A stretch of DNA of 14,551 bases, taken from Elusimicrobiota bacterium. Its GTDB lineage: Bacteria > Elusimicrobiota > Elusimicrobia > Elusimicrobiales > UBA9959. This document shows positions 2-14,551 of this stretch, piece after piece. Made by a program: the position numbers and the translations under genes. The notes beneath the pieces were generated by a model, which made no database searches, was not told where the DNA came from, and saw only the letters and a list, made by a program, of their open reading frames with translations. The DNA is taken from contig JBAXKK010000066.1 in the NCBI GenBank assembly GCA_037137395.1, positions 1 through 14,551 of the forward strand, written 5' to 3'. Within the stretch, counting starts at the first letter, position 1. Every line of letters starts with the position of its first letter.

Positions 2-3000
2 GGGTGGTGGAGTGAAACTATTGAGGATCCCCTGGGCGATAATCACGAGAGATTATCAAAAGATACTCTTGGGGCCATAACAAGTGTTTGTCCAGATATG
101 GGGGGCTCATTTTATTATGGGGATATTTGGGCGGCTACGGAAGGGAGTGCGGATGACACATATGCACACGGAGGAAATGCTGCAAATAATGACGGGCCTG
201 CTATGGGTTGGTGGACGAACGCTTTGTATGAATATAAGTATTTTAACTTCGGCGGAACATACGGTGCATATTGGTTCCTTGGATCAATGGCGCACTTGGT
301 GGAGGATATGGGGGTCCCGGCTCACGCCATGAATGTCCCCCATGTTTTTCCTGCCCTTGATAATTTAGAAAGCAATGCGGCTCGCAACTACACTTCAAGT
401 TCAGTAATGCTGTATTACAACGCCTCTAACTATCCCTCTGACTATAAAGACTTTTTGAAGGGTTACACGCAGGACATAGTTAATAACGATAGTGAAGTGT
501 CTCCGCCTGCTGGGAATAGTTGGAATGACTTTTGGGTTGCGGGAAGTTATGGGCCAAATGGTGACATATTCCATAGCACGGCTTTGGGTGCCACGGCAGA
601 GGAAAATGCGCTAGTGGCGCACCAGTTGGCTAGTGCGCGAAACTATACTGCGGGAGCTTTGCTTGCAGCTTCGAAAAAATTACCGCCGCTTGTGAGAACG
701 CAGTTGCTCCTTTCAGTTCCCGTAATCAACACTGAAACCGGGAATACTATTTCCTTTAAGGTTATTGAAAACCGGACCGCCGCCGTAAAAATAAGTCTTG
801 TTGTTGCAGAAACCGGCCAATTTATAAAAGATTCTTCCGGCAAAATCTGGAATAAATCCGAAGAAAGTTTGGACGCAGATTCGGAACTCCCGTTCGGAAA
901 AATTTTTAATAATATTATCTGGAAAGGGGCAGTTTCTGCTGGCGAACCCCTTGCAGACGGAAATTATAAGCTGAAGGTCCTGGTTTGGGACACCGAGGGC
1001 GTCCCAAATCAGGCCCCAACCAACGAAACAGACCCCCAAGGCATCGCTTCGGTGGATTTCACTGTTCGGGCAAGCAGTTTCGCTGTTTATGATGAAGCAG
1101 GTAACGCTATTGCCGACAACGCTTTCGTTGCCGTTGACGGCGTTTTAGCGACAGGCGCCGACGGCACGGCAAAAATAACTTTGGACGGCCCGGTGCAACA
1201 GGAGGTTATATTCTCTTCGGGTGAAGCGATCGCCGCGGAGTTTGACGGGATATGGGACGGGGTCTATACCGTTTCAGCCTATGACGCGGATAATAATCTG
1301 CTCAGTTCCTCTACTTTTACCAATGACCGCGCCGAGCCGTGGTTTTATACGATAGATGAGAATGGCGAATATGGTCTTTTTGCCACAAACTCCACAATGA
1401 TAACGGTGCACGCTGAAGACGATGGCTCAAAAGTAGACCGCATAGTTATGGACGGACCGAGCGGTTCAACCCGTGCCGTGAGCGGTCAGACTCCGGTTGA
1501 TGAGACGTTCAGCGGGCTTTCTGCAGGCGAGTATACTGTGTGGGTTTATGACAGATCCGGTAACGCCGCTAAGCAGATATTCTGGGTGATAGCCCCGCCG
1601 CCTGGTTCCGGGCATGAGCCGCTTCCCGAACTTGAAAGCAGTATCGCTATATTTCCGCCGCCCTCAATGAAAAATGTCGGTCCAAGCGCAGTACTCGCTG
1701 CGGCGCTTCCTGATGGCGGGTATTACATCGCAATACCCGGGTACTACGGCAGTTATCTGATTAAGGTAAATAGCTCCGGCGATATCGTCGGGGCTAGCGG
1801 CGGCGCGGGGGATTATTGGATAAAAGACATGGCGGTTGACGGTAGTGGGAAAGTGTATATAGCAGCTATAATGGAGGATCTCAATGGAAGACATTGTCAA
1901 ATTAACGGTACTAATCTTCCATATGATACGAGGGAAAGCGTTAAAGTGGCTGTAGATCCGGTTTTGAACCGTGTTTACGCGGCTTACCTATTTGGCAACG
2001 GGATACAGGTTGCTTCTTTTGATACTGATCTTAACCCACTGAACACTTGGACCTATGATCCTGGTTCTGTGCGGGAAGAGGTTAATTTAAGCGGTATTTC
2101 AGTGGATAAAACCGGTGACGTTTGGGTGGGTGGGGGCGAGGTTTTTGCTAATGACCGGGGGGCCAACTGGGACTATCTTCTGGCGTTTCACTTCGGACCC
2201 AATTTGTCCGGTCCCGCTGTAATGAAGCAGGGAACAATATTTACTGAAGGAGAAAGTGAAGGAGCTCTTAGCTTTGCAGGGAGTCCAAATGGCGGTGTTG
2301 TGCTCCCTAATAATGGAGTTTTATGGCGGATCACATCGGCAGGTTTTGGCACCCCGGTTACGCGGCAGTCGGTATATGGGGAGTTAGAAGTGGATGAGGC
2401 CGGTAATATATACGAAGCGGTCGAGAATCCGGTTAACGGCCTCGTTAAGATAGGCCCGGACAACGCTATTATCTGGGATCCGCCATATCTTGATACAGGC
2501 CTGGCGCCGGAGGCCATTGTAATACCGCAAACCGGGAAGTTGGATATTGGAATGATCGTTTATGAGGGTGGACCGGCTGAGAATTACCATCTTTCTATTT
2601 CGCGCTATGCGTCCCCTGCGCCGGTATTTACCGCCACCGCCCCGGATGGGCTTGCTACGCTTAATTCCGCAACAGGGGATGCGGTAGTATCCGCCGTATC
2701 GCCTGAAATTCAGGCCTCCGCAGGAGCCGCCGCGGAGGGGGACGGACTGCTTGCCGTCACTCCTTTTTATGAAGTGACTTCCGGTTCAAGTACGCTTTCC
2801 TTGCCAGCCGATATTACTTTAACTTATTCCACCAATACTCTTTCTGAAATGGAATTGTCTCCGTGGGATATAAGCGTGTATGAATATGACGCGGAGAACG
2901 GCTGGGTTTATATGGACGATCAGGTTACGGATGAGGATAATAACAGGCTCAGCGCGCCCATATCGGGCAGCGCGCGGATATTCGCCATTTTGGGCAGCCT

Positions 3001-5977
3001 CCCTGATGAATCCGCTCCGGTAGCGCAACTGGTGGTAAACGGTTTACCGCTTGAAGACGGCGCAACGGCATATATAAATGCAAACGATCCCATAACGATA
3101 TCAGCGGAGGATTCCGGCGCAGGCGACATTTCCGGAGTTGCGGACATATTATATTCTACAGATGTCGATTTCTCATGGGAAACCGCCGCAATTTACAGCG
3201 GGCCGTTCACGCTTTCCACAGGCGCGCACACGGTTTACTACACTGCGAACGACTACGCGGGGAATCAGGCGGAAGTTAAGACCGCTTTTATAACTGTGAA
3301 CGCGACGGCGGCTTATCAAGTGGTTGACCCGTCTTCCGGACCCATCGGGATGCCGTTTACGATAACGGGTACAGGGTTTGGAGCTTATTCCGCAGGCACG
3401 ACTATAGTGCTGATAGGCGGAGCTACCGCGCCGCTTACGCTGTGGAGCACAACCACCATAAAGGGCACCGTGCCCGGAAGTCTTGCCGACGGCGAGTATC
3501 CGGTTTTGGTGAAGCGCGGCACAATGACTATCGCCAATGTCCAGCCGTTCACGGTTGCCACGCCTGTGCAGGCTTCTATCATACCCTCCTCCGGAGCGAT
3601 AGGCGTGCCGTTCACTATAACCGGCGCGAACTTCGGCAATTATGTGGCCAACTACACCAAAGTGTTGATAGGCGGCACGACCGCCCCGCTGACATTGTGG
3701 ACCGATACCAAGATAGAAGGCACGGTGCCCGGAGCCCTTAGCCCCGGCGATTACGATCTTATGGTCGAGCGGGAACTTAACGGCGGAGTAGTGCAAACTT
3801 CCACGCTCACATTTACGGTGATCGCGCCGCAACTGTTTTCAACAAGTCAGTCGTCAGGCGCGATAGGTATAGCGTTCACGCTGACCGGCGCGAACTTCGG
3901 AAACTATGCCGCCAATTATACCAGGGTGCTTATTGGCGGTACGACCGCCCCGTTAACGCTGTGGACGGACGCCAAAATACAGGGCACGATTCCCGGCAGC
4001 CTGGGTTCAGGGCAGTATGCGCTGCTTGTGGAGTGTAAAACCCAGGACGGCGGCCTGATACAAACTTCGTCGGTAACATTCGAAGTGTTGGGTGTGAAGG
4101 TAAGCAGTATAACACCCGTGACCGGGCCTATCGGCCTGCCTTTTACTATCTACGGGGCCAACTTCGGCGGCTACTCAGCCAACTATACCAGGGTGCTTAT
4201 TGGCGGAACCACCGCCCCATTAACGCTGTGGACGGATACTAAGATCCAGGGCACTATTCCCGGCAGCCTGGCTGAAGGCGATTACCCTGTTGTTGTCGAA
4301 CGCACCTTCAACGGCGGGCAGGTTCAGTCTTCAACTCTGACCTGGACGCTGGCCGCGCCTTCCCTGGCTTCGGTAAGCCCGTCGTCGGGGCCCATCGGGA
4401 TACCGTTCATCATAATGGGTACAAACTTCGGTAATTATGTGGCTAACTACACTAAAGTGTTGATAGGCGGCGCGACAGCGCCGTTAACACTGTGGACCGA
4501 CACGAAGATACAAGGCACTATCCCCGGCGCATTAACCTCAGGAGATTACGAGCTGTATGTTGAAAGAGCTCTTAACGGCGGCATCGCCCGGACTTCAACC
4601 GCAACATTCACGGTGGCTTTGCCTGTTTTAAATACGGTCAGTCCGTCCACGGCGGCCGTCATAGCGCCGTTTACCCTGACCGGCTACAACTTTGGAAGCT
4701 ATGTGGCAAATTACACCAAGGTTTTAATAGGCGGAGCCACAGCGCCGCTGACCCTGTGGACAGATAGTAAGATACAAGGCAAACTGCCGTTCCTATTGAG
4801 TGGAACTTACCCGGTGCAGGTTCAGCGTTACTTTAACGGTGCTCTTGCCGAAAGCGCCACCGCGTATATAAATGTGGCCGGGCTTTCTATATCCAGTATG
4901 ACTCCTACAAGCGGCGCGGGCGCGACAGCATTTACTATATGGGGTTCTTACTTCGGCCCTTATGACGCCAGCCTGGTGAATGGGAAGCCCTCCACGCGCG
5001 TGACCTTGAACGGCGTGGTCTGTTCTCTGAGCCTCTGGACCGACATGCAGATAAAAGGCCTGATCCCGGATTCGATAAGTTATGGAACACATACAGTACT
5101 GGTTGAGCGTGCTTCATCCGCAGGTACGGCCTCTTCAAATGCAATACAATTTACCGTGCCCGGCGGCGGGTATGGCGTGTCGGCTGCTCCAGCTTTCGCA
5201 AAGCCGAAAGCCGTGGCGGGTGGCGGCGAGCATAAAGCCGAACTTGCGCTTTCGCCCGAATGGGGCGGCATAGTAGAAAGCCCCGGCCGCTCGGCTGTTA
5301 TAGTGCCGGAGAACGCTTTGGCTGAAGAAACCGTTATAACAATATCCCCTGATAAACCCTCAACTGAGGAGACGGCCATAAGGGAAGCCGCCATGAAGCT
5401 GGCTATGCTCGCGGCCGCGGGGGCCGCCGTGTCTTTCGGGCCTGAAGGGTTGATATTCGGCAAGGACGCCGAACTCAAGCTGCCCTACGACTATAATAAA
5501 CTGCCGAAGGGCAAAACCGTAAGCGACCTATCCGTCTACTGGTGGGACGAGAACAATAACGATTGGGTTATGTTGCCTTCGGAAACCGACGGCGGCCTGG
5601 CCAGGCTGAAAGCGACGGCCGGGCATTTCTCGGTCTATCAGGTGCTGGTGCGCGGTGTAACTCCGCTGGCCGCCGATCCCGCATTTACGGCGGGGGAACA
5701 TTACGCGTACCCCAATCCGGCCAAAGGCAATAATCCGCGATTCCATTTCGAATGCGGACTTGCCGACGGCGCGCGGCTGGTCGTGTATGATATAAGCGGG
5801 CATAGAGTGTATGAAACCGACATGGGTGCGGCTGTTACGACAGGGGGCAAATACGCGTATGTGCATACCTGGGAAGTACAGAACGCCGCGAGCGGCGTAT
5901 ATGTGTATATTATGCGCGCCAACAAGACCGGATATAGCGACATAGTAAAGAAAGGTAAAGTTGCGCTGGTTAGATAA
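2..5977 (+). CDS. Giant multidomain secreted/surface protein (5'-partial): Zn-dependent phospholipase C/P1-nuclease-like N-terminal domain, FlgD/Ig-like domains, beta-propeller-like region, ZU5-like domains, 7 IPT/TIG repeats, C-terminal T9SS type-A-like sorting domain
   Basis: The frame of the 98..5977 ORF stays open to position 2 (GWWSETIEDPLGDNHERLSKDTLGAITSVCPD-M), so the true start lies upstream of the window. Motifs: W-x12-H and AYWFLGSMAHLVEDMGVPAH (PLC/P1 Zn ligands); IWKG..G.PLADGNY (FlgD Ig-like); repeated P.SG.IG.PFTITG.NFG...VLIGG..APLTLWTDTKI.GT.PG; C-terminal YAYPNP...VYDISG..V...ASGVY...KKGKVALVR. Confidence 0.85.
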   Translation, partial: GWWSETIEDPLGDNHERLSKDTLGAITSVCPDMGGSFYYGDIWAATEGSADDTYAHGGNAANNDGPAMGWWTNALYEYKYFNFGGTYGAYWFLGSMAHLVEDMGVPAHAMNVPHVFPALDNLESNAARNYTSSSVMLYYNASNYPSDYKDFLKGYTQDIVNNDSEVSPPAGNSWNDFWVAGSYGPNGDIFHSTALGATAEENALVAHQLASARNYTAGALLAASKKLPPLVRTQLLLSVPVINTETGNTISFKVIENRTAAVKISLVVAETGQFIKDSSGKIWNKSEESLDADSELPFGKIFNNIIWKGAVSAGEPLADGNYKLKVLVWDTEGVPNQAPTNETDPQGIASVDFTVRASSFAVYDEAGNAIADNAFVAVDGVLATGADGTAKITLDGPVQQEVIFSSGEAIAAEFDGIWDGVYTVSAYDADNNLLSSSTFTNDRAEPWFYTIDENGEYGLFATNSTMITVHAEDDGSKVDRIVMDGPSGSTRAVSGQTPVDETFSGLSAGEYTVWVYDRSGNAAKQIFWVIAPPPGSGHEPLPELESSIAIFPPPSMKNVGPSAVLAAALPDGGYYIAIPGYYGSYLIKVNSSGDIVGASGGAGDYWIKDMAVDGSGKVYIAAIMEDLNGRHCQINGTNLPYDTRESVKVAVDPVLNRVYAAYLFGNGIQVASFDTDLNPLNTWTYDPGSVREEVNLSGISVDKTGDVWVGGGEVFANDRGANWDYLLAFHFGPNLSGPAVMKQGTIFTEGESEGALSFAGSPNGGVVLPNNGVLWRITSAGFGTPVTRQSVYGELEVDEAGNIYEAVENPVNGLVKIGPDNAIIWDPPYLDTGLAPEAIVIPQTGKLDIGMIVYEGGPAENYHLSISRYASPAPVFTATAPDGLATLNSATGDAVVSAVSPEIQASAGAAAEGDGLLAVTPFYEVTSGSSTLSLPADITLTYSTNTLSEMELSPWDISVYEYDAENGWVYMDDQVTDEDNNRLSAPISGSARIFAILGSLPDESAPVAQLVVNGLPLEDGATAYINANDPITISAEDSGAGDISGVADILYSTDVDFSWETAAIYSGPFTLSTGAHTVYYTANDYAGNQAEVKTAFITVNATAAYQVVDPSSGPIGMPFTITGTGFGAYSAGTTIVLIGGATAPLTLWSTTTIKGTVPGSLADGEYPVLVKRGTMTIANVQPFTVATPVQASIIPSSGAIGVPFTITGANFGNYVANYTKVLIGGTTAPLTLWTDTKIEGTVPGALSPGDYDLMVERELNGGVVQTSTLTFTVIAPQLFSTSQSSGAIGIAFTLTGANFGNYAANYTRVLIGGTTAPLTLWTDAKIQGTIPGSLGSGQYALLVECKTQDGGLIQTSSVTFEVLGVKVSSITPVTGPIGLPFTIYGANFGGYSANYTRVLIGGTTAPLTLWTDTKIQGTIPGSLAEGDYPVVVERTFNGGQVQSSTLTWTLAAPSLASVSPSSGPIGIPFIIMGTNFGNYVANYTKVLIGGATAPLTLWTDTKIQGTIPGALTSGDYELYVERALNGGIARTSTATFTVALPVLNTVSPSTAAVIAPFTLTGYNFGSYVANYTKVLIGGATAPLTLWTDSKIQGKLPFLLSGTYPVQVQRYFNGALAESATAYINVAGLSISSMTPTSGAGATAFTIWGSYFGPYDASLVNGKPSTRVTLNGVVCSLSLWTDMQIKGLIPDSISYGTHTVLVERASSAGTASSNAIQFTVPGGGYGVSAAPAFAKPKAVAGGGEHKAELALSPEWGGIVESPGRSAVIVPENALAEETVITISPDKPSTEETAIREAAMKLAMLAAAGAAVSFGPEGLIFGKDAELKLPYDYNKLPKGKTVSDLSVYWWDENNNDWVMLPSETDGGLARLKATAGHFSVYQVLVRGVTPLAADPAFTAGEHYAYPNPAKGNNPRFHFECGLADGARLVVYDISGHRVYETDMGAAVTTGGKYAYVHTWEVQNAASGVYVYIMRANKTGYSDIVKKGKVALVR
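3320..5160 (+). repeat. Seven tandem intragenic IPT/TIG-domain repeats (~88 aa each)
   Basis: The PLTLW codons start at 3431, 3686, 3950, 4217, 4481 and 4745 (spacing 255-267 bp). A seventh, divergent copy (SLSLWTDMQIKG) lies near 5025. Confidence 0.9.
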
Positions 5978-6010
5978 GGTGTAAAGGCGCAGAAAGAAAA
6001 GGATCGTACG

Positions 6011-6940
6011 ATGAAACAACGGATGATAATGATGGCGGTTTTAGCGGTCAACCTATGCGCATGGGCAGAAGCGGGAGTGTCTTCCGAAGCATTTTTGAAG
6101 ATAGGCGCGGGCGCCGAGGCCGCAGCACTAGGGAACGCCTATACCGCCGCCGCGGACGGCCCGGCCGCTATTTACTGGAACCCGGCCGGTATGGCCGGGA
6201 GCGGCAAAACAGCCGTAACGCTTACGCATACCATGCTTTATAATGAGGCGACGCACGACTTTGCAGCCTTCACTTTTAAAGGGCTTGGCGGTAATATAGG
6301 CGCGGCCATGACATGGTTAAGTTACGGCAGCCTTAACGGCAGGGATATAAACGGCATGGCCGCCGGTGACTTCTCGGCCGGGGATTCGGCTTTAAGTCTC
6401 GCGTACGCGGCAAACTTGGGCGCGGACATAAAGGCAGGGATGGCCGGGAAATACATACACAGCAAGATAGGCGGCGACACGGGGGACGGTTTCGCGCTGG
6501 ACGCCGGTGTAAAATGGGTCACGCCTGTAAATGGTCTTAAAGCCGGTTTCGCGATGCAGAACCTGGGTCCGGAATTCAGGTTTTCAGGAGATAAGAAGCC
6601 GCTGCCGCTCACCTGGGATATCGGTTTGGAGTACGGAGGTATAGATCGTTTTAAATTTTTGTTAGACGGTAAAGCGCGGCCCGAAGACGGGGATGATGAA
6701 CTATGCCTCGGAGCGGAATACCAAGTGGCTAAAGCTCTGTCTGTGCGGGCGGGATACAACGGAAAAGCCTTAAAGGCGGGTAAGCAGAGCGGGGCTAAAG
6801 GTTTGAAAGCGCTTGATAATCTGCGCGGCATAAGCGCCGGTTTCGGCGCGGCGCTTGGCGGATTTGAAGTGGATTATTCGTTTACGCCGTACGGCGAGCT
6901 GGGTAATGCCCAGCGGATAACCCTGTCCGCGGCTTTTTAG
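6011..6940 (+). CDS. PorV/PorQ-family outer-membrane beta-barrel protein (FadL-like)
   Basis: Signal peptide MKQRMIMMAVLAVNLCAWAEA; family motif FLKIGAGAEAAALGNAYTAAADGPAAIYWNPAG; C-terminal DYSFTPYGELGNAQRITLSAAF ending in Phe; RBS AAGGA at about 5999-6003; 33 bp after the cargo gene. Confidence 0.85.
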   Translation: MKQRMIMMAVLAVNLCAWAEAGVSSEAFLKIGAGAEAAALGNAYTAAADGPAAIYWNPAGMAGSGKTAVTLTHTMLYNEATHDFAAFTFKGLGGNIGAAMTWLSYGSLNGRDINGMAAGDFSAGDSALSLAYAANLGADIKAGMAGKYIHSKIGGDTGDGFALDAGVKWVTPVNGLKAGFAMQNLGPEFRFSGDKKPLPLTWDIGLEYGGIDRFKFLLDGKARPEDGDDELCLGAEYQVAKALSVRAGYNGKALKAGKQSGAKGLKALDNLRGISAGFGAALGGFEVDYSFTPYGELGNAQRITLSAAF

Positions 6941-6998
6941 TTGACCGCAGAGGACAGCGCCTATATGGCCAGTTGGGCAACGCCATAAAAATATTCAG

Positions 6999-7026
6999 TT
7001 AGAATGGAAGAAATTTTAAATATAAT
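6999..7026 (+). promoter_or_regulatory. Putative sigma70 promoter of the BMC operon
   Basis: Perfect TATAAT at 7021-7026 in an AT-rich spacer upstream of the AGGAGG RBS of the first BMC gene. The -35 candidate TTAGAA (6999-7004, 16-bp spacer) is weak. Confidence 0.4.
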
Positions 7027-7054
7027 AATATATGAGAGAGTATAGGAGGATAAA

Positions 7055-7342
7055 ATGGAAGCACTTGGAATGATAGAAACCAAAGGTTTAGTGGCCTGCA
7101 TTGAAGCGGCGGATGCCGCCGTGAAAGCCGCCAATGTTAAACTGGTGGGCTACGAGAAGATAGGCTCCGGCCTTGTCACGATTATGTTCCGCGGCGAAGT
7201 GGCCGCCTGCCGGGCCAGTTGCGACGCCGGCGCCGCGGCCGCGCAGAAAGTCGGGGAGGTTGTATCTGTGCACGTGATACCTTCGCCTCACTCCGATCTT
7301 GAAGGCAGGCTGCCTATCGGTATTGAAACCCGAAAGAAGTAA
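7055..7342 (+). CDS. BMC-H hexameric shell protein (EutM/PduA/PduJ-like)
   Basis: [27 protein letters not shown]...KIGSG...VHVIPSPH is the canonical single BMC domain; strong AGGAGG RBS. Confidence 0.95.
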
Positions 7343-7346
7343 AAAA

Positions 7347-7437
7347 AGTGTAGAGTGGGTAGTGTAAAGTGTAGAGCGGTTGAGTAAATCACTTGATGGT
7401 CTCTGCGCTAAATACTTTCTACTTTACACTCTCGACC
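7347..7437. repeat. Heptamer tandem-repeat hairpin A (AGTGTAG family)
   Basis: Left arm AGTGTAG AGTGGGT AGTGTAA AGTGTAG AGCGGTT (7347-7381); right arm CTGCGCT AAATACT TTCTACT TTACACT CTCGACC (7403-7437), approximately the reverse complement. Confidence 0.8.
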
Positions 7438-7454
7438 TTTGTCAGGGAGAACTT

Positions 7455-7763
7455 ATGTTATTTGCCAGAGTGGTCGGCAACGTGGTCTGCACGCGCAAGG
7501 ACGACAAGCTCGTAGGCTCAAAGCTGCTTATGGTTCAGCCAGTGGGACTGGATGATAAGCCGCGCGGCAATGTTCTGGTGGGTATTGATTCCGTGGGAGC
7601 GGGCGAGGGCGAACTGGTTCTGCTGGTGCAGGGCTCAAGCGCCCGTCAAACCTCTAAGACCGAGAGTACGCCGGTGGACTGTACGATCTTCGCTATTGTT
7701 GACACAATAGAGAAAGATGGTAAAACCGTGTTCACTAAACGGGACGACAGGATGGCAGTTTAA
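7455..7763 (+). CDS. BMC-P pentameric vertex protein (EutN/CcmL family)
   Basis: MLFARVVGNVVCTRKDDKLVGSKLLMVQP...DSVGAGEGELVLLVQGSSAR...PVDCTIFAIVD. Start moved to ATG 7455 (RBS GGGAGA at 7445-7450); the longer ORF runs through repeat A. Confidence 0.93.
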   Translation: MLFARVVGNVVCTRKDDKLVGSKLLMVQPVGLDDKPRGNVLVGIDSVGAGEGELVLLVQGSSARQTSKTESTPVDCTIFAIVDTIEKDGKTVFTKRDDRMAV

Positions 7764-7767
7764 CAAG

Positions 7768-7852
7768 AGTGGCAAGTGAATAGTGGTAAATTGAGGTATT
7801 CCTTAAACACTGACCACTCGTACTGATTACTCGACACTAATCACTAACCACT
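7768..7852. repeat. Heptamer tandem-repeat hairpin B (AGTGGTA / ACCACT family)
   Basis: Left AGTGGCA AGTGAAT AGTGGTA (7768-7788); right AAACACT GACCACT CGTACT GATTACT CGACACT AATCACT AACCACT (7805-7852). Confidence 0.8.
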
Positions 7853-7860
7853 GCTTTGAA

Positions 7861-9276
7861 ATGCTTATGAACGAAGAAGAACTTCAGCGCATAGTGACCG
7901 AAGTCCTCAAGAATATTGATCCTGTGGCCGCGCCGGTCAATCTTAGCGTTTCCGACGGCCCCGTGTTCTCCTCTGTGGACGCGGCGGTCAGCTCCGCTGA
8001 ACAGGCCCAGGTTGAATTTCAGGACTTGGGCATGGAAGCGCGTTCAAAGATCATAGATTCAATGCGCAGGGTTTCAGTGGATAACGCCGCGCGCTGGGCA
8101 AAGCTTGCTGTAGCTGAGACCGGCATGGGCCGCGTGGAAGATAAGACGCAAAAGAATCTGATCGTCGCCGCCAGGACCCCCGGGGTGGAGGATCTGAGAT
8201 CCATATCTTATACAGGCGACAAGGGGCTTACGCTGGTGGAGTGGGCGCCCTTCGGAGTGGTTGCGGCTATAACGCCTTCCACCAACGCTGTGGCCACCAT
8301 CATCAGTAACGCCATAGGAATACTTGCCGCGGGCAATTCCGTCGTGTTCTCGCCTCACCCGGCCGCCAAAGGCTGCGTGCAGGACTGCGTGCGCGTTCTT
8401 AACTCCGCTATAATTTCTGCCGGCGGCCCCGCCAACCTTGTTTCCACCATTGAAAATCCGACCCAGGACTCCACCCGTGAACTTTTAGCCCATCCCAAGG
8501 GCCGTATGAATATGGTTACCGGCGGTCCTGCTATAGTTAAAGTGGCCATGACCGTGGGCAAGGCTTGTAAGACTATCGCCGCCGGGCCCGGTAATCCGCC
8601 GATCGTAGTAGACGAGACCGCCATTTTTCCGGATTGCGCGCGCGAGATAATCACCGGCTGCGGGTTCGATAATAACGTGCTCTGCATAGCCGAGAAGGAA
8701 GTAGTGGTGACGGAGAGAGCCAAAGCTTTATTTCTGGAGAGCATGCGAAAGGACCCCAGGGCTTACGAGCTTACGGCCTCCCAGATAGACAAACTTGCCA
8801 GCCTCGCCATATTGGCGCCAGGAAAGGAGCCCAGATTAAACCGGGATTTTATCGGAAAGAACGCCTCCGTCATCGCCAAAGCCATAGGCCTCAGTCTGCC
8901 TGATGAGATACGCGTGCTCTGGTCGGAGGTCTCTGAAGACCATCCCTTTGTGGTTTCCGAACAGCTTATGCCGGTGCTGCCGGTAACCACGGCGCGCGAT
9001 ATAGACGCCGCCATAGAACTGGCTTATAAGCTGGAATGGGAGCACCACCATACTGCCGGCATGTACTCGACCGATATCAGAAATATGAGCAAAATGGGCC
9101 GCAGGATGGCTTGCTCCATTTTTGTTAAGAATGCCTGCACGCTGCACGGCCTGGGCCTTGGAGAAGGGTACGCTTCAATGTCCATCGGCACGCCTACCGG
9201 CGACGGCATAACCAAAACTTCTCATTTCGTGCGCCCGCTGCAGTGCAGTCTTGTCGGGTATATGAGAATAGCATAG
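7861..9276 (+). CDS. CoA-acylating aldehyde dehydrogenase (EutE/PduP family) with N-terminal encapsulation peptide
   Basis: ETGMGRVEDK..KN, PFGVVAAITPSTN, VTGGPAIV, AAGPGNPP, catalytic FDNNVLCIAEK, EQLMPVLP, GTPTGDGIT; amphipathic N-terminus MNEEELQRIVTEVLKNI. The start may be 7861 or 7867. Confidence 0.93.
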   Translation: MLMNEEELQRIVTEVLKNIDPVAAPVNLSVSDGPVFSSVDAAVSSAEQAQVEFQDLGMEARSKIIDSMRRVSVDNAARWAKLAVAETGMGRVEDKTQKNLIVAARTPGVEDLRSISYTGDKGLTLVEWAPFGVVAAITPSTNAVATIISNAIGILAAGNSVVFSPHPAAKGCVQDCVRVLNSAIISAGGPANLVSTIENPTQDSTRELLAHPKGRMNMVTGGPAIVKVAMTVGKACKTIAAGPGNPPIVVDETAIFPDCAREIITGCGFDNNVLCIAEKEVVVTERAKALFLESMRKDPRAYELTASQIDKLASLAILAPGKEPRLNRDFIGKNASVIAKAIGLSLPDEIRVLWSEVSEDHPFVVSEQLMPVLPVTTARDIDAAIELAYKLEWEHHHTAGMYSTDIRNMSKMGRRMACSIFVKNACTLHGLGLGEGYASMSIGTPTGDGITKTSHFVRPLQCSLVGYMRIA

Positions 9277-9417
9277 ATCGTAAAACGTAAAGAGTAAAGC
9301 GTAAAGGGTAAAGAGTGAGAGGCTGAGCGTAAAAGTTGTAAATTGTTTTGTTATTTTAATGAATGTCAGTCGTTTCGTGTTGTTACTCTTCACGCTTCAC
9401 GTTTTACGCTTTACGAT
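9277..9417. repeat. Heptamer tandem-repeat hairpin C (AGCGTAA / TTACGCT family)
   Basis: Left ATCGTAA AACGTAA AGAGTAA AGCGTAA AGGGTAA AGAGTGA GAGGCTG AGCGTAA (9277-9332); right TTACTCT TCACGCT TCACGTT TTACGCT TTACGAT (9383-9417). Confidence 0.9.
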
Positions 9418-9435
9418 AGAAAAAGGAGAATTTAT

Positions 9436-9993
9436 ATGCAGGCAAATACAGCCATCGGATTACTTGAGACCGCTTCGATCGCCAGGGGCGTGGAAACGCT
9501 GGACGCCATGTGCAAGGCCGCGGGCGTTGAACCGGAAACGGCTATGGCGATTTCCAAGGGCAAATACATAATAATAATTTCCGGCCCCGTGGGCGAGGTT
9601 GAATCGTCCATGGCTAAAGGCGTCGAGATCGCCGGGGATACCCTGGTGGCCAGCCACATTATCCGCAACATCCATTCAGGCGTGATAATGGCCCTTAACA
9701 AGAAGGTAAAAGCGGACAAGGTTGAAGCTGTCGGCATAGTTGAGACCAAAGAGGCGCTGCCGGCCGTGTTCGCGGCCGACGCCGCGGCAAAAGCGGCTTT
9801 TGTGCAAGTGTCCGAAGTTAACACCGGCAAAGGTATCGGCGGCAAAGGTTATTTTACTGTGACAGGGGACGTTGGGGCGGTCAGGACCGCGGTCTCCGCG
9901 GGGGTGAAGGCTATCGGCGAAGCCGCCGTCGTAGCCCGGATAGTCATCCCCAACGCGCACGCCCATGTGGCGGATGTGATAAGTGGTAAGTAG
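9436..9993 (+). CDS. BMC-T tandem-domain shell protein (PduT-like)
   Basis: Two BMC domains: AIGLLETASIARGVETLDAMCKAA...GKYIIIISG and AVGIVET...AADAAAKAA...GIGGKGYFTVTGDVGAV. Start ATG 9436 follows AGGAG (9424-9428). Confidence 0.92.
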   Translation: MQANTAIGLLETASIARGVETLDAMCKAAGVEPETAMAISKGKYIIIISGPVGEVESSMAKGVEIAGDTLVASHIIRNIHSGVIMALNKKVKADKVEAVGIVETKEALPAVFAADAAAKAAFVQVSEVNTGKGIGGKGYFTVTGDVGAVRTAVSAGVKAIGEAAVVARIVIPNAHAHVADVISGK

Positions 9994-10040
9994 TAAGTGA
10001 TAAGTGGTAAGTAGTAAGACTTATAACTTACTACTTAATC
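9976..10040. repeat. Heptamer tandem-repeat hairpin D (TAAGTRG family), overlapping the BMC-T stop codon
   Basis: TAAGTGG TAAGTAG TAAGTGA TAAGTGG TAAGTAG TAAG (9980-10018); right arm CTTATAA CTTACTA CTTAATC (10020-10040). Confidence 0.85.
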
Positions 10041-10060
10041 CTTTTTTACACGGAGGATTT

Positions 10061-10507
10061 ATGAGAATAGTTATAGGTTCCGATCACGCCGGTTTTGAAG
10101 CCAAGGAAAAGATGAAGAAATTCATCCAGGGTCTGGGCTATGATGTAACAGATTTTGGCTGCTACTCCGTAGAGCCGGTGGATTTCCCTGATATCGCCAT
10201 GCTTGTGGGCGACGCGGTGCGCAAAAAAGAATTTGAAAAGGGCGTGCTGATAGACGGCTTTAACGGCGCTATGCCGCTGGCCGCCAATAAAATTCCCGGT
10301 ATACGCGCGGTGGGAGCGTATGATATTATCTCGGCGCGCTTCGCCGCGGCCCACGAGGACTGCAACGTGCTATGCCTCGGCGGAAAGACCCACGGCGAAC
10401 TTGCCCTGCAGGAAATGATAAAGGTGTGGCTGAACACGCCTTTTGAAGGCGGGAAGTATCAGAAGCGCCTGGATAAGATAACGGCGATAGAGCAGAGATG
10501 TTGTTAA
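10061..10507 (+). CDS. rpiB: RpiB/LacA/LacB-family sugar-phosphate isomerase (atypical active site)
   Basis: MRIVIGSDHAGF, VDFPD, AANKIPGIRA, NVLCLG, WLNTPFEGG...RLDKI; RBS GGAGG at 10052-10056 fixes the start at 10061. Confidence 0.88.
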   Translation: MRIVIGSDHAGFEAKEKMKKFIQGLGYDVTDFGCYSVEPVDFPDIAMLVGDAVRKKEFEKGVLIDGFNGAMPLAANKIPGIRAVGAYDIISARFAAAHEDCNVLCLGGKTHGELALQEMIKVWLNTPFEGGKYQKRLDKITAIEQRCC

Positions 10508-10510
10508 CTG

Positions 10511-10635
10511 CTGCCATAAGCCGTATGCCATACGCCATAGACAGAAAGATTATAGGCCGTAAGTTTTTACAGATTTACTCATCTGGCCTATAGCCTATGG
10601 CTTATGGCAGATGGCGGGCGCGGCGCCCTTATGGC
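10511..10635. repeat. Heptamer tandem-repeat hairpin E (GCCATAR / YTATGGC family) with embedded GGGCGCGGCGCCC mini-hairpin
   Basis: Left GCCATAA GCCGTAT GCCATAC GCCATAG (10513-10540); right CTATAGC CTATGGC TTATGGC AGATGGC [GGGCGCGGCGCCC 10616-10628] TTATGGC. Confidence 0.9.
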
Positions 10636-10654
10636 AATGGATGTATCCTAATTT

Positions 10655-11008
10655 ATGAAACAGGCAAAAGTCATCGGCAGGGTGTTCTGTTCCAGGCAGT
10701 GCTGCGGCATGGACGCTAAAACCATGCTTTTGATACAGCCGCTGGACTGGGATACCGATAAGCCGGCCGGAGAGCCGCTGGTGGCCGCTGACACAGTCGG
10801 CGCGGGGGCCGGCGAGACTGTTTTTTTTGTAGCGTCCAGGGAAGCCATAATGGCTTTTGAAGGCTGGGAGGTAGGGGAAACCGCAGTGCGGTGTCCCACT
10901 GGGATGGATGTTTGGAAGGGGTGCCCGGAAACTTCCGTTAAGTCCAACCTGCCTCCGGTTGACGCGGCGATAGTCGGAATAATAGACGGGAAATCTGTCC
11001 GCCTGTAG
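10655..11008 (+). CDS. BMC-P pentameric vertex protein (EutN/CcmL family) with internal insertion
   Basis: MKQAKVIGRVFCSRQ...LLIQP...VAADTVGAGAGETVFFVASREA...PVDAAIVGIID; about 25 extra residues before PVDAAIVGIID compared with the other two BMC-P. Confidence 0.88.
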   Translation: MKQAKVIGRVFCSRQCCGMDAKTMLLIQPLDWDTDKPAGEPLVAADTVGAGAGETVFFVASREAIMAFEGWEVGETAVRCPTGMDVWKGCPETSVKSNLPPVDAAIVGIIDGKSVRL

Positions 11009-11028
11009 CGGATGTATGCCGCAAAGTT

Positions 11029-11141
11029 GCCATAGGCTTTAAGCCGTATGCCATAAGCTTTTGAGGAGTTTCTTATAGCCTATGGCGGGCGCGGCGCCCA
11101 TATGGCGTATAGCCTATAGCATATGGCCTATGGCTTATAGC
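11029..11141. repeat. Heptamer tandem-repeat hairpin F (GCCATAR / YTATGGC family) with embedded GGGCGCGGCGCCC mini-hairpin
   Basis: Left GCCATAG GCTTTAA GCCGTAT GCCATAA GCTTTTG (11029-11063); right TTATAGC CTATGGC [GGGCGCGGCGCCC 11087-11099] ATATGGC GTATAGC CTATAGC ATATGGC CTATGGC TTATAGC. Confidence 0.9.
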
Positions 11142-11174
11142 AATAGATACAACTAGAAATAAGGAAACATTCTG

Positions 11175-11474
11175 ATGTTCATCGCTAAAGTAATCGGCAA
11201 TGTGTGGGCTACCAGAAAGCATAAGGAGCTGAATAATTATAAGCTCCTGCTGGTGAAGGCCATTGACCCGTGTACCCCAGCTAAATTTTCAGGCGACACC
11301 ACTCTCGCCGTGGACGGAAATGTAGGCGCCGGTCCTGGTGATGTTGTGCTAGTCGTGGACGAAGGCGGTTCAGCCAGGAAGATACTGGGCAATCCCAAGT
11401 CGCCGGTGCGGACCGTTATTTGCGGCATAGTGGACCAGGTAAGTTCCAAAAGCGAGGTTAAAAAATATGCGTGA
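11175..11474 (+). CDS. BMC-P pentameric vertex protein (EutN/CcmL family)
   Basis: [27 protein letters not shown]...[24 protein letters not shown]...[19 protein letters not shown] at 11161-11165. Confidence 0.92.
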
Positions 11475-12468
11475 CGAAGAAATAAAAAAAATAGCCGAGG
11501 AAGTAGCCAAAATTTTGAGGGGAACCGGGCTGGGCGCAGCGCCTTATAAATATTCTATGCCGGGCGACTCCGTTTCCATCGGCACCGCCGGTAAGGTGTT
11601 CCAGCGCCCCCTGGTAAACTCGCCCTCCGCGCAGGTTCCTCAGGCCCCTAAAAAGTGTTCAGCCTCCGGTGAATGCCGGCTGGAAGAAAATACGTGCAGT
11701 TCCACCTGTCAAAACTGCAATCCGCTTAAAAGCTATACCGCCCAGCAGGTGAAAGAGATGGGGGTGGAGCGCGTCAGCTTTTGCAATCCGGACCAGTCGA
11801 GCAATTCCATAGCCGGGATGATAGACCATACTCTTTTGAAGGCTAACGCCACCCAGGAAGAAGTGGGGAAGCTTTGCGAGGAGGCCCGCAAGTACCGCTT
11901 TGCCTCGGTCTGCGTGAACCCGGGCTATGTGGCCATGTCCGCGCGCCTGCTTAAAGGGAGCTGTGTGAAGGTCTGCACGGTTATCGGGTTTCCGTTAGGC
12001 TCTACGACCCCGACCGTCAAAGCGATAGAGGCAAGAGACGCCATCGCCAATGGGGCGGAAGAGATAGATATGGTCATCAATATCGGCGCCTTAAAATCCG
12101 GGAATGATCTTATGGTGCTTGATGATATAAAGGCCGTGCGCGAGGCTACCCGGGGCCGGGTGCTGAAAGTTATCATTGAAACTTCATACCTTACCAAGGA
12201 TGAAAAGATCCGCGCCTGTAAAATGGCAAAGCAGGCCGGCGCCGATTTTGTCAAAACGTCTACGGGCTTTGGCTCCGGCGGCGCGACTGTGGATGATGTG
12301 GCTCTCATGCGCGAAGTTGTGGGTCCCGATATGGGCGTTAAAGCTTCGGGCGGAATAAAGGACGCAAAAGCGGCACAGGATCTTATAAAGGCCGGCGCCA
12401 CGCGGTTGGGTACAAGCGCCAGCATCGCCATAGTTTCCGGCGGGCAGGCCGTGAAAGGACAGTATTAA
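11467..12468 (+). CDS. deoC: Deoxyribose-phosphate aldolase with N-terminal encapsulation peptide and Cys-rich extension
   Basis: [44 protein letters not shown], Schiff-base [25 protein letters not shown]; about 110-aa N-terminal extension; overlaps the upstream gene by 8 nt. Confidence 0.95.
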
Positions 12469-12472
12469 AAAT

Positions 12473-12549
12473 AGGGTATAGGGTATAGGGTACAGGGTAC
12501 AGGGTAAGGAACTCCTTCCCTAGCCCCTGGCCCCTAACCCCTGAACCCT
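12473..12549. repeat. Heptamer tandem-repeat hairpin G (AGGGTAY / RRCCCCT family)
   Basis: Left AGGGTAT AGGGTAT AGGGTAC AGGGTAC AGGGTAA (12473-12507); central AAGGA-AC-TCCTT; right AGCCCCT GGCCCCT AACCCCT GAACCCT (12522-12549). Confidence 0.9.
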
Positions 12550-12565
12550 TTCATAAGGAGAATAT

Positions 12566-12859
12566 ATGTCAGAACCGAAAGAAGCGTTGGGAATGATCGA
12601 GACCAAGGGGTTTATCGGCATGATAGAATCTTCGGACGCCATGGCTAAAGCGGCTAACGTGCGGCTCATCGGTTACGAGAAGATCGGCTCCGGATACGTG
12701 ACCACGTTATGCGTTGGCGAGGTCGGCGCTGTGCGCGCGGCTGTGGAAGCGGGCGCGGCTGCCGCCCAGAAAGTCGGGGAACTTGTCGGGATGCACGTGA
12801 TTCCCAGGCCCCACGACGATCTGGATAAATATATAGCCAAAATATCCGTGAAAGCTTAA
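12566..12859 (+). CDS. BMC-H hexameric shell protein (EutM/PduA/PduJ-like)
   Basis: [27 protein letters not shown]...KIGSG...[10 protein letters not shown]...HVIPRPH; RBS AAGGAG at 12555-12560. Confidence 0.95.
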
Positions 12860-12888
12860 ATTATAGCGCTAGCGCTATAATTTAAGCT
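12853..12888. repeat. Perfect 36-bp palindrome overlapping the BMC-H stop codon
   Basis: AGCTTAAATTATAGCGCT|AGCGCTATAATTTAAGCT, 18-bp arms with no spacer, checked base by base. Confidence 0.95.
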
Positions 12889-12990
12889 GCCATAAGCCGT
12901 AAGCTTTAGGCCATAGGCAGAACGGTAAATAATTTACAGTAGTTGTTTTCTGCATACGGCCTATGGCGCGGCTGTTTCAGCCGCTTATGG
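12889..12990. repeat. Heptamer tandem-repeat hairpin H (GCCATAR family) with embedded GCGGCTG-TTT-CAGCCGC mini-hairpin
   Basis: Left GCCATAA GCCGTAA GCTTTAG GCCATAG GCAGAAC (12889-12923); right TTTCTGC ATACGGC CTATGGC [12968-12984 hairpin] TTATGG. Confidence 0.85.
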
Positions 12991-13013
12991 AGATAGTTGT
13001 ATCTAAAATTATT

Positions 13014-13274
13014 ATGCTCACAAAAGGCGATATTGCCGATGTTATTTCCGCGTACCTGGCGCGCGCCTCCGCCGGCGCGGCTGCGGAGACTCGCGGCCGA
13101 ATTCCCTCCAGGGCATCTAAACCTTTACCTAAGCGCGTATTTATAACCGACTGGGAGATGAAGCGCCTGGTGAAGCCCGGCCAGAAATCTGTAAGCGTTC
13201 CGGCCGGCGCTATAATCAGCCCGCTCTCGCTGGACTGGCTGGACTACGACGGCGTTAAAGTTGTTCGCGGGTGA
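13014..13274 (+). CDS. Small BMC-associated hypothetical protein (putative encapsulation peptide plus RVFIT...AIISPL..D domain)
   Basis: MLTKGDIADVISAYLAR amphipathic helix, Ala/Pro-rich linker, then KRVFITDWEMKRL...VSVPAGAIISPLSLDWL, resembling the small module seen on BMC-associated proteins such as the EutQ N-terminus. The start is uncertain; upstream ATGs lie in repeat H. Confidence 0.65.
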   Translation: MLTKGDIADVISAYLARASAGAAAETRGRIPSRASKPLPKRVFITDWEMKRLVKPGQKSVSVPAGAIISPLSLDWLDYDGVKVVRG

Positions 13275-13288
13275 ACTGGGGGATTTGT

Positions 13289-14377
13289 ATGGCGGATTTA
13301 GGTGTAATAGAAGGATTTTACGGCGAGCCGTGGAGCTGGGAAGAGCGGGCGGATTATGCGGCTTTCCTCAAACGCCATGGTTTCTCTTTTTATATCTACG
13401 CGCCCAAGGCCGACGGCTTCATGCGCAAAAAATGGCGCGAGCCTTTCCCCGAAGATCTGGAAAAGAATCTTACCATCCTCTCCGCGCGATGCCGCGCCTC
13501 CGGTGTAGAGTTCGGAGTCGGCTTCAGCCCTTACGAGATATACCTCTCGCCTTTTAACGACGGGGTCAAAAGCCTGCTTCAGCGCCGCATAGACGTCTTC
13601 AACCGCATCGGCGTGGACAAGTTCGGCCTGCTGATGGACGACATGAAGGGGGACTCCCCTGAACTGGCCTCGCGCCAGATAGAGATAGTCAATTGGGTGG
13701 CCGCGCGGACCACAGCCAAACAGATTATTTTCTGCCCGACTTATTATTCACTGGATCCGGTGCTTGAAAAACTTTTCGGCAAAAAGCCGGAAGGGTATCT
13801 GGAAACGCTCGGCAGGGAGCTTGACCCCAAGGTTCGTCTTTTCTGGACCGGCGAATTGGTCTGCTCCAAAAGTTACAGCGCCGAGCATCTCCGCGCGACG
13901 GCGGGCCTGCTGGGCCGCAAGCCTTTTCTCTGGGATAATTATCCGGTTAACGACGGGCCCCGGATGTGCAAGTTCCTGCATCTGCGGCCGATGACCGGCC
14001 GCCCCGCCGGCATCGGGCCATGGTTGTCAGGTCACGCGGTGAACCCTATGAACCAGCCGACATTGTCCAGGATCTCCCTCCTGACCCTGAAAGCCAGTTA
14101 TGAGCGTGGGGAAGCGTATAATCCCGCTGAGGCGTTCCTTGAGTCGGCCCAAACCGTGACCTGCGTGGAACTGGCGCGCCAGCTTGAGAAAAACCTGTCC
14201 GATTTTATGGACCGCGGCCTGGACCTCCTTCCCACGGAAGAGCGCGCCGTGCTAAAAGAGGCGTACAGGCCCTATCTTGATTCGCGCGAAGGCCAGACGG
14301 CCAAAGCGGCGCGGGAAGTGATAGACTGGCTGGACGACCGCTATACAGTCACTAAAGACCTCTTCCTGACGCAATGA
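13289..14377 (+). CDS. GH84 beta-N-acetylglucosaminidase (O-GlcNAcase/hyaluronidase catalytic domain), no signal peptide
   Basis: GVIEGFYGEPWS, YIYAPKAD...R..WRE, catalytic LMDDM, FCPTYY, FWTG, LWDNYPVND, NPMNQ are GH84 signature motifs; RBS GGGGGA at 13278-13283 before ATG 13289. Confidence 0.9.
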   Translation: MADLGVIEGFYGEPWSWEERADYAAFLKRHGFSFYIYAPKADGFMRKKWREPFPEDLEKNLTILSARCRASGVEFGVGFSPYEIYLSPFNDGVKSLLQRRIDVFNRIGVDKFGLLMDDMKGDSPELASRQIEIVNWVAARTTAKQIIFCPTYYSLDPVLEKLFGKKPEGYLETLGRELDPKVRLFWTGELVCSKSYSAEHLRATAGLLGRKPFLWDNYPVNDGPRMCKFLHLRPMTGRPAGIGPWLSGHAVNPMNQPTLSRISLLTLKASYERGEAYNPAEAFLESAQTVTCVELARQLEKNLSDFMDRGLDLLPTEERAVLKEAYRPYLDSREGQTAKAAREVIDWLDDRYTVTKDLFLTQ

Positions 14378-14478
14378 ATTAAAGTGGAATTAAAGTGACA
14401 CACAACTTAATTGTTGCCAATTAAGTTGTGTGTCACTTTAATTATGTGTCACCTTGTCACTTTAATTATGTGTCACCT
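14376..14478. repeat. 26-bp perfect inverted repeat with flanking tandem duplications; possible terminator or REP-like element
   Basis: AATTAAAGTGACACACAACTTAATTG (14388-14413), TTGC loop, exact reverse complement (14418-14443); GAATTAAAGTG x2 (14376-14397); TGTCACTTTAATTATGTGTCACCT x2 (14431-14478). Confidence 0.9.
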
Positions 14479-14551
14479 TATTTATTACCTTATTTAAAAT
14501 ATTGCTTGATTGTGATTATGGATTTCTGCTATATATATCATAGGGAAGTGG

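Follow-up and report, generated by a model that had tools for sequence, protein, structure and literature searches.

The window examined here, a stretch of 14,551 nucleotides (nt) from an Elusimicrobiota bacterium (GenBank assembly GCA_037137395.1, contig JBAXKK010000066.1), carries a bacterial microcompartment (BMC) operon in which eight intergenic spacers each hold a hairpin, A to H, built from tandem heptamers and their inverted counterparts. The operon occupies 7055-13274, and its genes, all on the forward strand, encode in order a BMC-H shell protein (7055-7342; PF00936), a BMC-P protein (7455-7763; PF03319), an aldehyde dehydrogenase (AldDH; 7867-9276; PF00171), a BMC-T shell protein (9436-9993; two PF00936 domains), an RpiB-family isomerase (10061-10507; PF02502), two further BMC-P proteins (10655-11008 and 11175-11474; both PF03319), a DeoC aldolase with an N-terminal extension (11467-12468; PF01791), a second BMC-H shell protein (12566-12859; PF00936) and, last of the locus, a small protein (13014-13274) that has no match in Pfam or NCBIfam and is kept in the BMC loci of relatives at 36-89% identity. 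The nearest named homologues of DeoC come from Elusimicrobiota, and the combination of DeoC, RpiB and aldehyde dehydrogenase with a BMC-H/T/P triplet is that of the sugar-phosphate utilisation (SPU) BMC loci reported from Elusimicrobia (PMC11585597). Set beside those loci as described there, the gene content of the operon, with its three BMC-P genes, shows nothing unusual. The window is contig C66 of a 2.7 Mb draft genome, G000; G001 is its sister species, and G, C and L numbers denote genomes, contigs and examined loci.

Spacer hairpins of the microcompartment operon

RNA folding compared with 200 dinucleotide shuffles reveals a long imperfect hairpin in each of the eight spacers: A at 7347-7430 (z sense/antisense -7.1/-2.6), B at 7768-7852 (-2.6/-2.2), C at 9277-9417 (-4.6/-7.0), D at 9976-10041 (-3.4/-5.1), E at 10512-10636 (-5.2/-5.7), F at 11024-11144 (-2.2/-2.4), G at 12473-12549 (-3.4/-4.6) and H at 12890-12990 (-4.1/-6.4). 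The control spacer upstream of the operon (6941-7054) gives -1.1 sense and -0.3 antisense. B and F fold weakly; in six of the eight spacers the antisense strand has the stronger z, and raw fold energy favours the sense strand in five. Tandem Repeats Finder reports arrays with a period of 7 and 3.6-6.1 copies in six spacers (A, C, D, E, F, G), and a motif-free periodicity detector at a looser setting finds arrays in all eight. This detector supplies all array counts given below, which are conservative, its strict setting having missed A, B and H. A previous interpretation of this DNA, made from its letters alone and called here the sequence-only reading, had described one hairpin architecture shared by the eight spacers and lacking at the two tight junctions (11467/11474 and 13274/13289). 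Both parts are borne out: all eight spacers fold below their shuffles (z -2.2 to -7.1) and carry period-7 arrays, and neither tight junction has an array. The same reading distinguished about six heptamer families. Several units are indeed seen, and they are less distinct than claimed, with those of A, C and G one base apart and those of B and D overlapping. E, F and H share one family, which speaks against the suggestion that different units serve to avoid cross-pairing. The window elements have partial matches only, no near-identical full-length copy being seen for any two of them, and a scan of the spacers against Rfam brought no family near its gathering score.

Some elements have features of their own. 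Hairpin D has a short 3' arm followed by a terminator-like T run and also scores as intrinsic-terminator-like; its array (9976-10018) begins within the last BMC-T codons and includes the stop (9991-9993). Hairpin H is preceded by a perfect palindrome, not heptameric, that overlaps the stop codon of the second BMC-H gene (12857-12884), so its heptamers begin about 30 nt past the stop. A small GC hairpin module lies within the 3' arm of E. Beyond the operon, the window encodes at 98-6940 a large IPT/TIG-repeat protein (seven TIG domains) followed by a PorV-like barrel protein, and at 13289-14377 a PF07555 N-acetylglucosaminidase, whose gene adjoins the BMC locus in seven relatives too.

Heptamer arrays across the genome and among relatives

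Period-7 arrays are a genome-wide feature of G000. With 2345 genes called by a simple in-house caller, 433 of 535 such arrays are intergenic, and the intergenic counts by period are 433 at 7 and 89 at 8 compared with 8-32 at 5, 6, 9, 10, 11 and 13. Arrays are found with the looser detector in 282 of 683 co-directional spacers of 60-200 nt (41%, against 2.3% in shuffled sequence) and more rarely in convergent (24/85) and divergent (16/79) ones. The generic mechanism for writing repeats into spacers, which the sequence-only reading had named as one option, is supported. The median array has 4.1 units, an inverted repeat is found in 168 of 259 array spacers, and in the median element the arm begins 3 nt past the stop, the stem measures 38 bp, the loop 17 nt and the distance to the next start 17 nt. 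This geometry agrees with the earlier statement that heptamers start at or just after the stop codon, from which D and H of the window depart. The purine-rich arm is the 5' one in 143 of the 168 elements against 22, as had been noted for the operon; since an inverted repeat reads alike on both strands, this order is a conserved polarity and not a strand bias.

Array-bearing spacers are mildly clustered, 110 of 204 following an occupied spacer compared with 110 of 285 following an empty one, and eight out of the 57 gene blocks reach an occupancy of 80% or more, the window block (eight of nine spacers) among them. The other dense blocks encode FtsA/FtsZ/Cmk, PolA/thioredoxin/SMC, GltX/RecN/ComEC/RecR (gltX-recN-comEC-recR), phosphotransferase system (PTS) proteins and lipid A enzymes; the first three of these are equally dense runs of unrelated housekeeping genes. 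A grammar common to the units is weakly indicated (information 3.33 vs 2.89 +/- 0.15 in 25 shuffles with fewer restarts), and a central loop palindrome, common to just 6-12 of 1150 spacers, is not general. The idea that units were chosen to carry stops in all frames was rejected (24 of 35 units vs 20.1 expected). As a separate observation, a non-heptameric repeat of about 150 nt recurs in spacers of contigs C98, C46, C2, C69 and C124 of G000, sometimes nested in heptamer hairpins.

The BMC operon is present in 24 of 60 relatives, where its junctions are often bare (a spacer of at most 30 nt, counted over the relatives in which that junction is assembled). The junction of the first BMC-H and BMC-P genes is bare in 0/20, that of BMC-P and AldDH, the site of hairpin B, in 16/24, AldDH to BMC-T in 12/23, BMC-T to RpiB in 16/22, RpiB to the second BMC-P gene in 13/22, the second to the third BMC-P gene in 11/21, DeoC to the second BMC-H gene in 6/14, and the latter to the small gene in 2/13. 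A window-like unit occurs at a given junction in only one or two relatives, and the conservation of stem-loops at the same junctions that marks selective RNA processing was not found across them. Turnover is visible even between sister species. The operon proteins of G001 are 81-100% identical to those of G000. Over 290 kb of G001, where the flanks are 91.7% identical, 19 of 27 array-bearing spacers fall below 70% identity compared with 10 of 44 others (p=1.4e-4), some of these ten being arrays overlooked by the strict detector. The median change in spacer length is 27 nt for array-bearing spacers and 1.5 nt for the others, and array copy numbers differ between the two species. Within the G001 operon, inspected by eye, C and G are kept, B retains its 5' arm only, C-type hairpins stand in place of A and E, and D, F and H have been remodelled. 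The orthologous operons and G001 confirm a pattern that the sequence-only reading had asked for, position kept with the unit changed.

The four-helix-bundle cassette

Our starting assumption was that genes for four-helix-bundle proteins lie inside heptamer arms, and this was then tested here. G000 has one intact gene of this kind (PF05635/TIGR02436; contig C76, L001), set between C-family arms that align with those of hairpin C and upstream of an aminomutase gene (PF16554); its product is related to the pentamer of PDB entry 2GSC (E 1e-30). The junction is filled in G000 and G001; of the 19 other relatives, 16 have at most 36 nt there and three carry other inserts. A full cassette with the same arm families as the operon hairpins exists, and it is an insertion relative to the bare orthologous junctions. 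No match to the GxxExxY cargo rose above the cut-off in G000.

The association extends well beyond this locus. PF05635 matches number 98 among 61 genomes; 70 were examined, and three that lack arms and look Avd-like or weak (L050, L051, L096) were set aside, leaving 67 homologues. At least one arm flanks 57 of these, both arms 29, and a detected inverted pair 23; the respective counts among 466 ordinary small genes in G000 are 99, 18 and 2. By eye, every arm type of the window (A, B, C, D, E/F/H, G) is seen beside some homologue: type A in L029, L030 and L033, the family of E, F and H in L066 and L069 (G001), and type G in L037 and L053 as well as in a half-deleted cassette of G000 (C4:24630-24830). 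Contig C35 of G000 ends near position 23790 inside an E-type 3' arm at the place where G001 has the full cassette of L069, so a second intact G000 gene may be unassembled. Protein and arm vary together. The nearest protein neighbour has a common arm unit in 22 of 56 cases (permutation mean 1.9, maximum 9), and an arm unit is common to 17 of 26 protein pairs above 65% identity but to 26 of 1322 pairs below 45%; in 8 of 13 protein pairs with a common unit the genes stand at different genomic sites. Across genomes, the gene count follows the hairpin load of the BMC junctions (rho 0.76, or 0.74 counting two of the set-aside matches) and the hairpins in unrelated, hand-picked samples of 18-280 kb from 26 genomes (rho 0.75), kin not being independent in either comparison. 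Mean hairpin occupancy of the BMC operon is 0.03 in nine genomes without the gene and 0.52 in 16 with it, and the median number of arrays per 100 kb in the unrelated samples is 0, 5 and 14 for zero, one and at least two genes. The 22 cassette loci of relatives correspond to 14 distinct G000 junctions, which by eye hold an empty array in ten cases and none in four.

Intermediate forms are also present. Contig C8 of G000 carries a 5'-truncated four-helix-bundle copy, and at C4:24630-25698 only the last approximately 20 codons remain, enclosed by G-type arms and in frame with the gene that follows, the 3' arm being read as part of the N-terminus of that gene's protein. Five loci of relatives (L032, L037, L048, L049, L053) likewise have four-helix-bundle genes or remnants fused in frame to the next gene. 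Two-array spacers whose arms belong to differing families are found repeatedly (the arms of 26 out of 89 were called unrelated, in some cases wrongly), and a gene-less hybrid consisting of a C arm, a fixed linker and an E arm has 22 matches at 85-96% identity, some of them in tandem. Of these, 12 are sense, 6 antisense and 4 unclassifiable at contig ends, and the occurrence of both orientations points to copying at the DNA level. A single base separates the 5' unit of C from the 3' unit of E, which would make a plausible handle for recombination.

Interpretation and comparison with known systems

We consider it likely that the eight hairpins are gene-less forms of a small selfish cassette, within a set of heptamer and octamer inverted repeats several hundred strong. 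The cassette itself, probably intervening-sequence-like, consists of an arm, a ribosome-binding site, the four-helix-bundle gene and an inverted arm, and the BMC operon is in our judgement more probably a heavily colonised site than a design. Partly deleted copies, spacer swaps between sister species and the gene-less composite in both orientations stand beside the insertion at C76, and this cassette, which explains the arms, was missed by the sequence-only reading. Such an element probably persists only in the gap from a stop codon to the following ribosome-binding site, where it would be lost, re-inserted and remodelled much faster than the surrounding genes. The four-helix-bundle gene may be lost by internal deletion, unit number may shift by slippage, and arms may spread at the DNA level through recombination or copying between near-identical units. 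The protein, a putative pentamer, would bind to the units of its own arms and promote spread. By analogy with 23S rRNA intervening sequences, RNase III, for which G000 has a gene, may cut the transcribed stems.

Several observations weigh against this interpretation. No clear target-site duplication was seen by eye at the elements, and no nuclease or recombinase was found tied to the cassette. G000 has one intact gene for more than 400 arrays. Exceptions to the correlation of gene count and hairpin load are G020, with two genes but no array within 40 kb, G032, with seven genes and only two arrays within 40 kb, and G009 and G035, which have two arrays each without the gene. The filled form of these exact junctions was not seen: a search of 177 BMC loci, with the G000 gene recovered as a positive control, showed no filled junction, and no four-helix-bundle gene was found in the 102 partly redundant loci with at least four BMC genes. 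The long inserts in L010, L011 and L021 are other genes. The co-variation of protein and arm may amount to nothing more than co-inheritance. Finally, in 107 of 168 elements the fold of the sense strand is the more stable (by a mean of 2.9 kcal/mol, and by 23 kcal/mol in hairpin A), which together with the excess of arrays in co-directional spacers may indicate some selection at the RNA level.

That last point leads to the other option put forward in the sequence-only reading, an RNA-structure code in which the stems, kept by selection as sites of processing or stability, would set shell-to-enzyme stoichiometry. All eight spacers fold, their full occupancy is high relative to the 41% background, the host has RNase III and the sense strand is often the more stable, and a precedent exists in the selective RNA processing and stabilisation of the cellulosome operon (PMC4423207). 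The comparative data speak differently, since most junctions of the operon are bare in many relatives, units are swapped in the sister species, arrays are genome-wide and the blocks colonised to at least 80% (8/57) include unrelated housekeeping genes. The G-U-tolerant strand bias expected of such a code is not significant either: in a strand-neutral alignment of the arms, G opposite T occurs 392 times and A opposite C 347 times (p=0.11), compared with 9:1 in the acceptor stems of 43 tRNAs. We regard a stoichiometry code as very unlikely. Neutral local slippage, with arrays arising de novo in each spacer and the protein link incidental, would account for copy numbers that vary between sister species and for window elements without a near-identical full-length copy. 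Slippage alone yields neither paired inverted arms nor a peak at periods 7-8 (433 vs 8-32), and it fails to give recurring families and linkers or the contrast in inverted pairs (23/67 vs 2/466); this explanation is largely refuted and, to us, highly improbable.

Two mobile systems with other partners deserve comparison. Repetitive extragenic palindromic (REP) or REPIN-type elements are moved by RAYT (Y1 HUH) transposases, and G000 has four Y1 transposase genes, small GC hairpin modules within the E/F/H arms, and intergenic, mosaic, DNA-level behaviour with a likeness to REP clusters. By eye, the repeats beside all four Y1 genes are of other kinds and not heptameric, one of them matching window 14377-14480, and the heptamer arms track the four-helix-bundle gene instead, so that a RAYT-driven origin of the heptamer hairpins seems very unlikely. 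The matching element, a long non-heptameric hairpin after the last gene of the window, matches the repeat upstream of a Y1 (RAYT-like) gene at C47:4631-4954 and is itself likely of REP/REPIN type because of that match. Mobility at the RNA level would involve an enzyme like that of a diversity-generating retroelement (DGR), reverse-transcribing the hairpin with an Avd-like four-helix-bundle ring as cofactor and writing it back near stops. The four-helix-bundle protein has a weak Avd match, and the genes are mostly co-oriented with their neighbours (23/27 upstream, 19/21 downstream), which is equally expected from a need for expression. The only reverse transcriptase found in G000 is that of a DGR, which lies at C52:11795-14836 (L002, L278) and comprises a target gene with a variable repeat at its end, an avd-like gene, a template repeat and the reverse transcriptase gene. 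The gene-less hybrid in both orientations and the lack of a G-U bias argue against such a route, to which we attach little probability.

The hairpins are best read as a real feature and a known kind of repeat, not a BMC-specific code. Should they derive from the selfish cassette, it is conceivable, if doubtful, that the latter represents a widespread class of mobile element without its own nuclease, in which a pentameric ring recognises the arm cognate to it, four to five heptamers long, and every subfamily of the protein has a unit of its own. No less tentatively, the ring might enlist a recombinase or reverse transcriptase of the host, by which hairpins would be written or overwritten at junctions next to stop codons. 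If so, hundreds of operon junctions would be RNase III cut sites that change identity between sister species, and one explanation would cover STRR-type repeats and the TIGR02436 family as well as the origin of rRNA intervening sequences. The operon offers a ready comparison, the same BMC genes carrying zero to eight hairpins in close relatives, and is a warning not to take dense hairpins between genes for a tuned expression code.

Short intergenic heptamer arrays are familiar from cyanobacteria as short tandemly repeated repetitive (STRR) sequences, and REP, REPIN and bacterial interspersed mosaic elements (BIME) are non-autonomous intergenic palindromes associated with RAYT that form mosaic clusters and turn over fast. 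The present elements differ from the latter in having arms of tandem heptamers and, as partner, a four-helix-bundle protein without known catalytic activity. Among published heptamers, MacGregor (2015) described unexplained intergenic direct repeats of 2-6 units near start and stop codons in Beggiatoaceae, and the terms 'four helix' and 'intervening' are absent from that text (PMC4679880). The closest likeness is to the Xanthomonas and Nostoc arrays of Rehm et al. (2015). These are intergenic, with about four units in convergent inverted pairs and 70-75 per Xanthomonas genome; the G-rich arm lies just past or over the stop, mostly between aligned ORFs, next to genes of all functional classes (PMC4692102). 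Intergenic period-7 enrichment, about four units and inverted pairs near the stop are all found in G000. Inverted heptamer pairs are already published, and that text reports no link to mobile elements (PMC4692102). The link of PF05635 to heptamer arms, and with it a description of the cassette, was not found in searches of open-access literature at the level of listings and abstracts. The Rehm repeats form one family per genome, kept at 83% between species, unlike the many, quickly replaced families of G000, and the G-quadruplexes proposed for them (PMC4692102) cannot form from most units here, a GGG run occurring among window units only in family G.

The 23S rRNA intervening sequences of Coxiella and Leptospira have an S23p/PF05635 gene within a stem cut by RNase III (PMC4990558). 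Compared with these, the elements described here lie in mRNA spacers, have tandem-heptamer arms and mostly lack the gene: all eight window elements stand between protein genes, none at an rRNA gene, and a PF05635 gene within a terminal inverted repeat is seen at C76 and in 23 of 67 homologues, not in the eight window elements or the 102 BMC loci. What the full cassette and these intervening sequences have in common is a PF05635 gene in a terminal inverted-repeat stem-loop, a sporadic distribution and a pentameric four-helix-bundle fold. Neither the intergenic heptamer repeats nor the PF05635/TIGR02436 proteins have a known function in these papers (PMC4692102, PMC4990558), and a single cassette with filled, decaying, empty and hybrid forms would join the repeats to the protein family.

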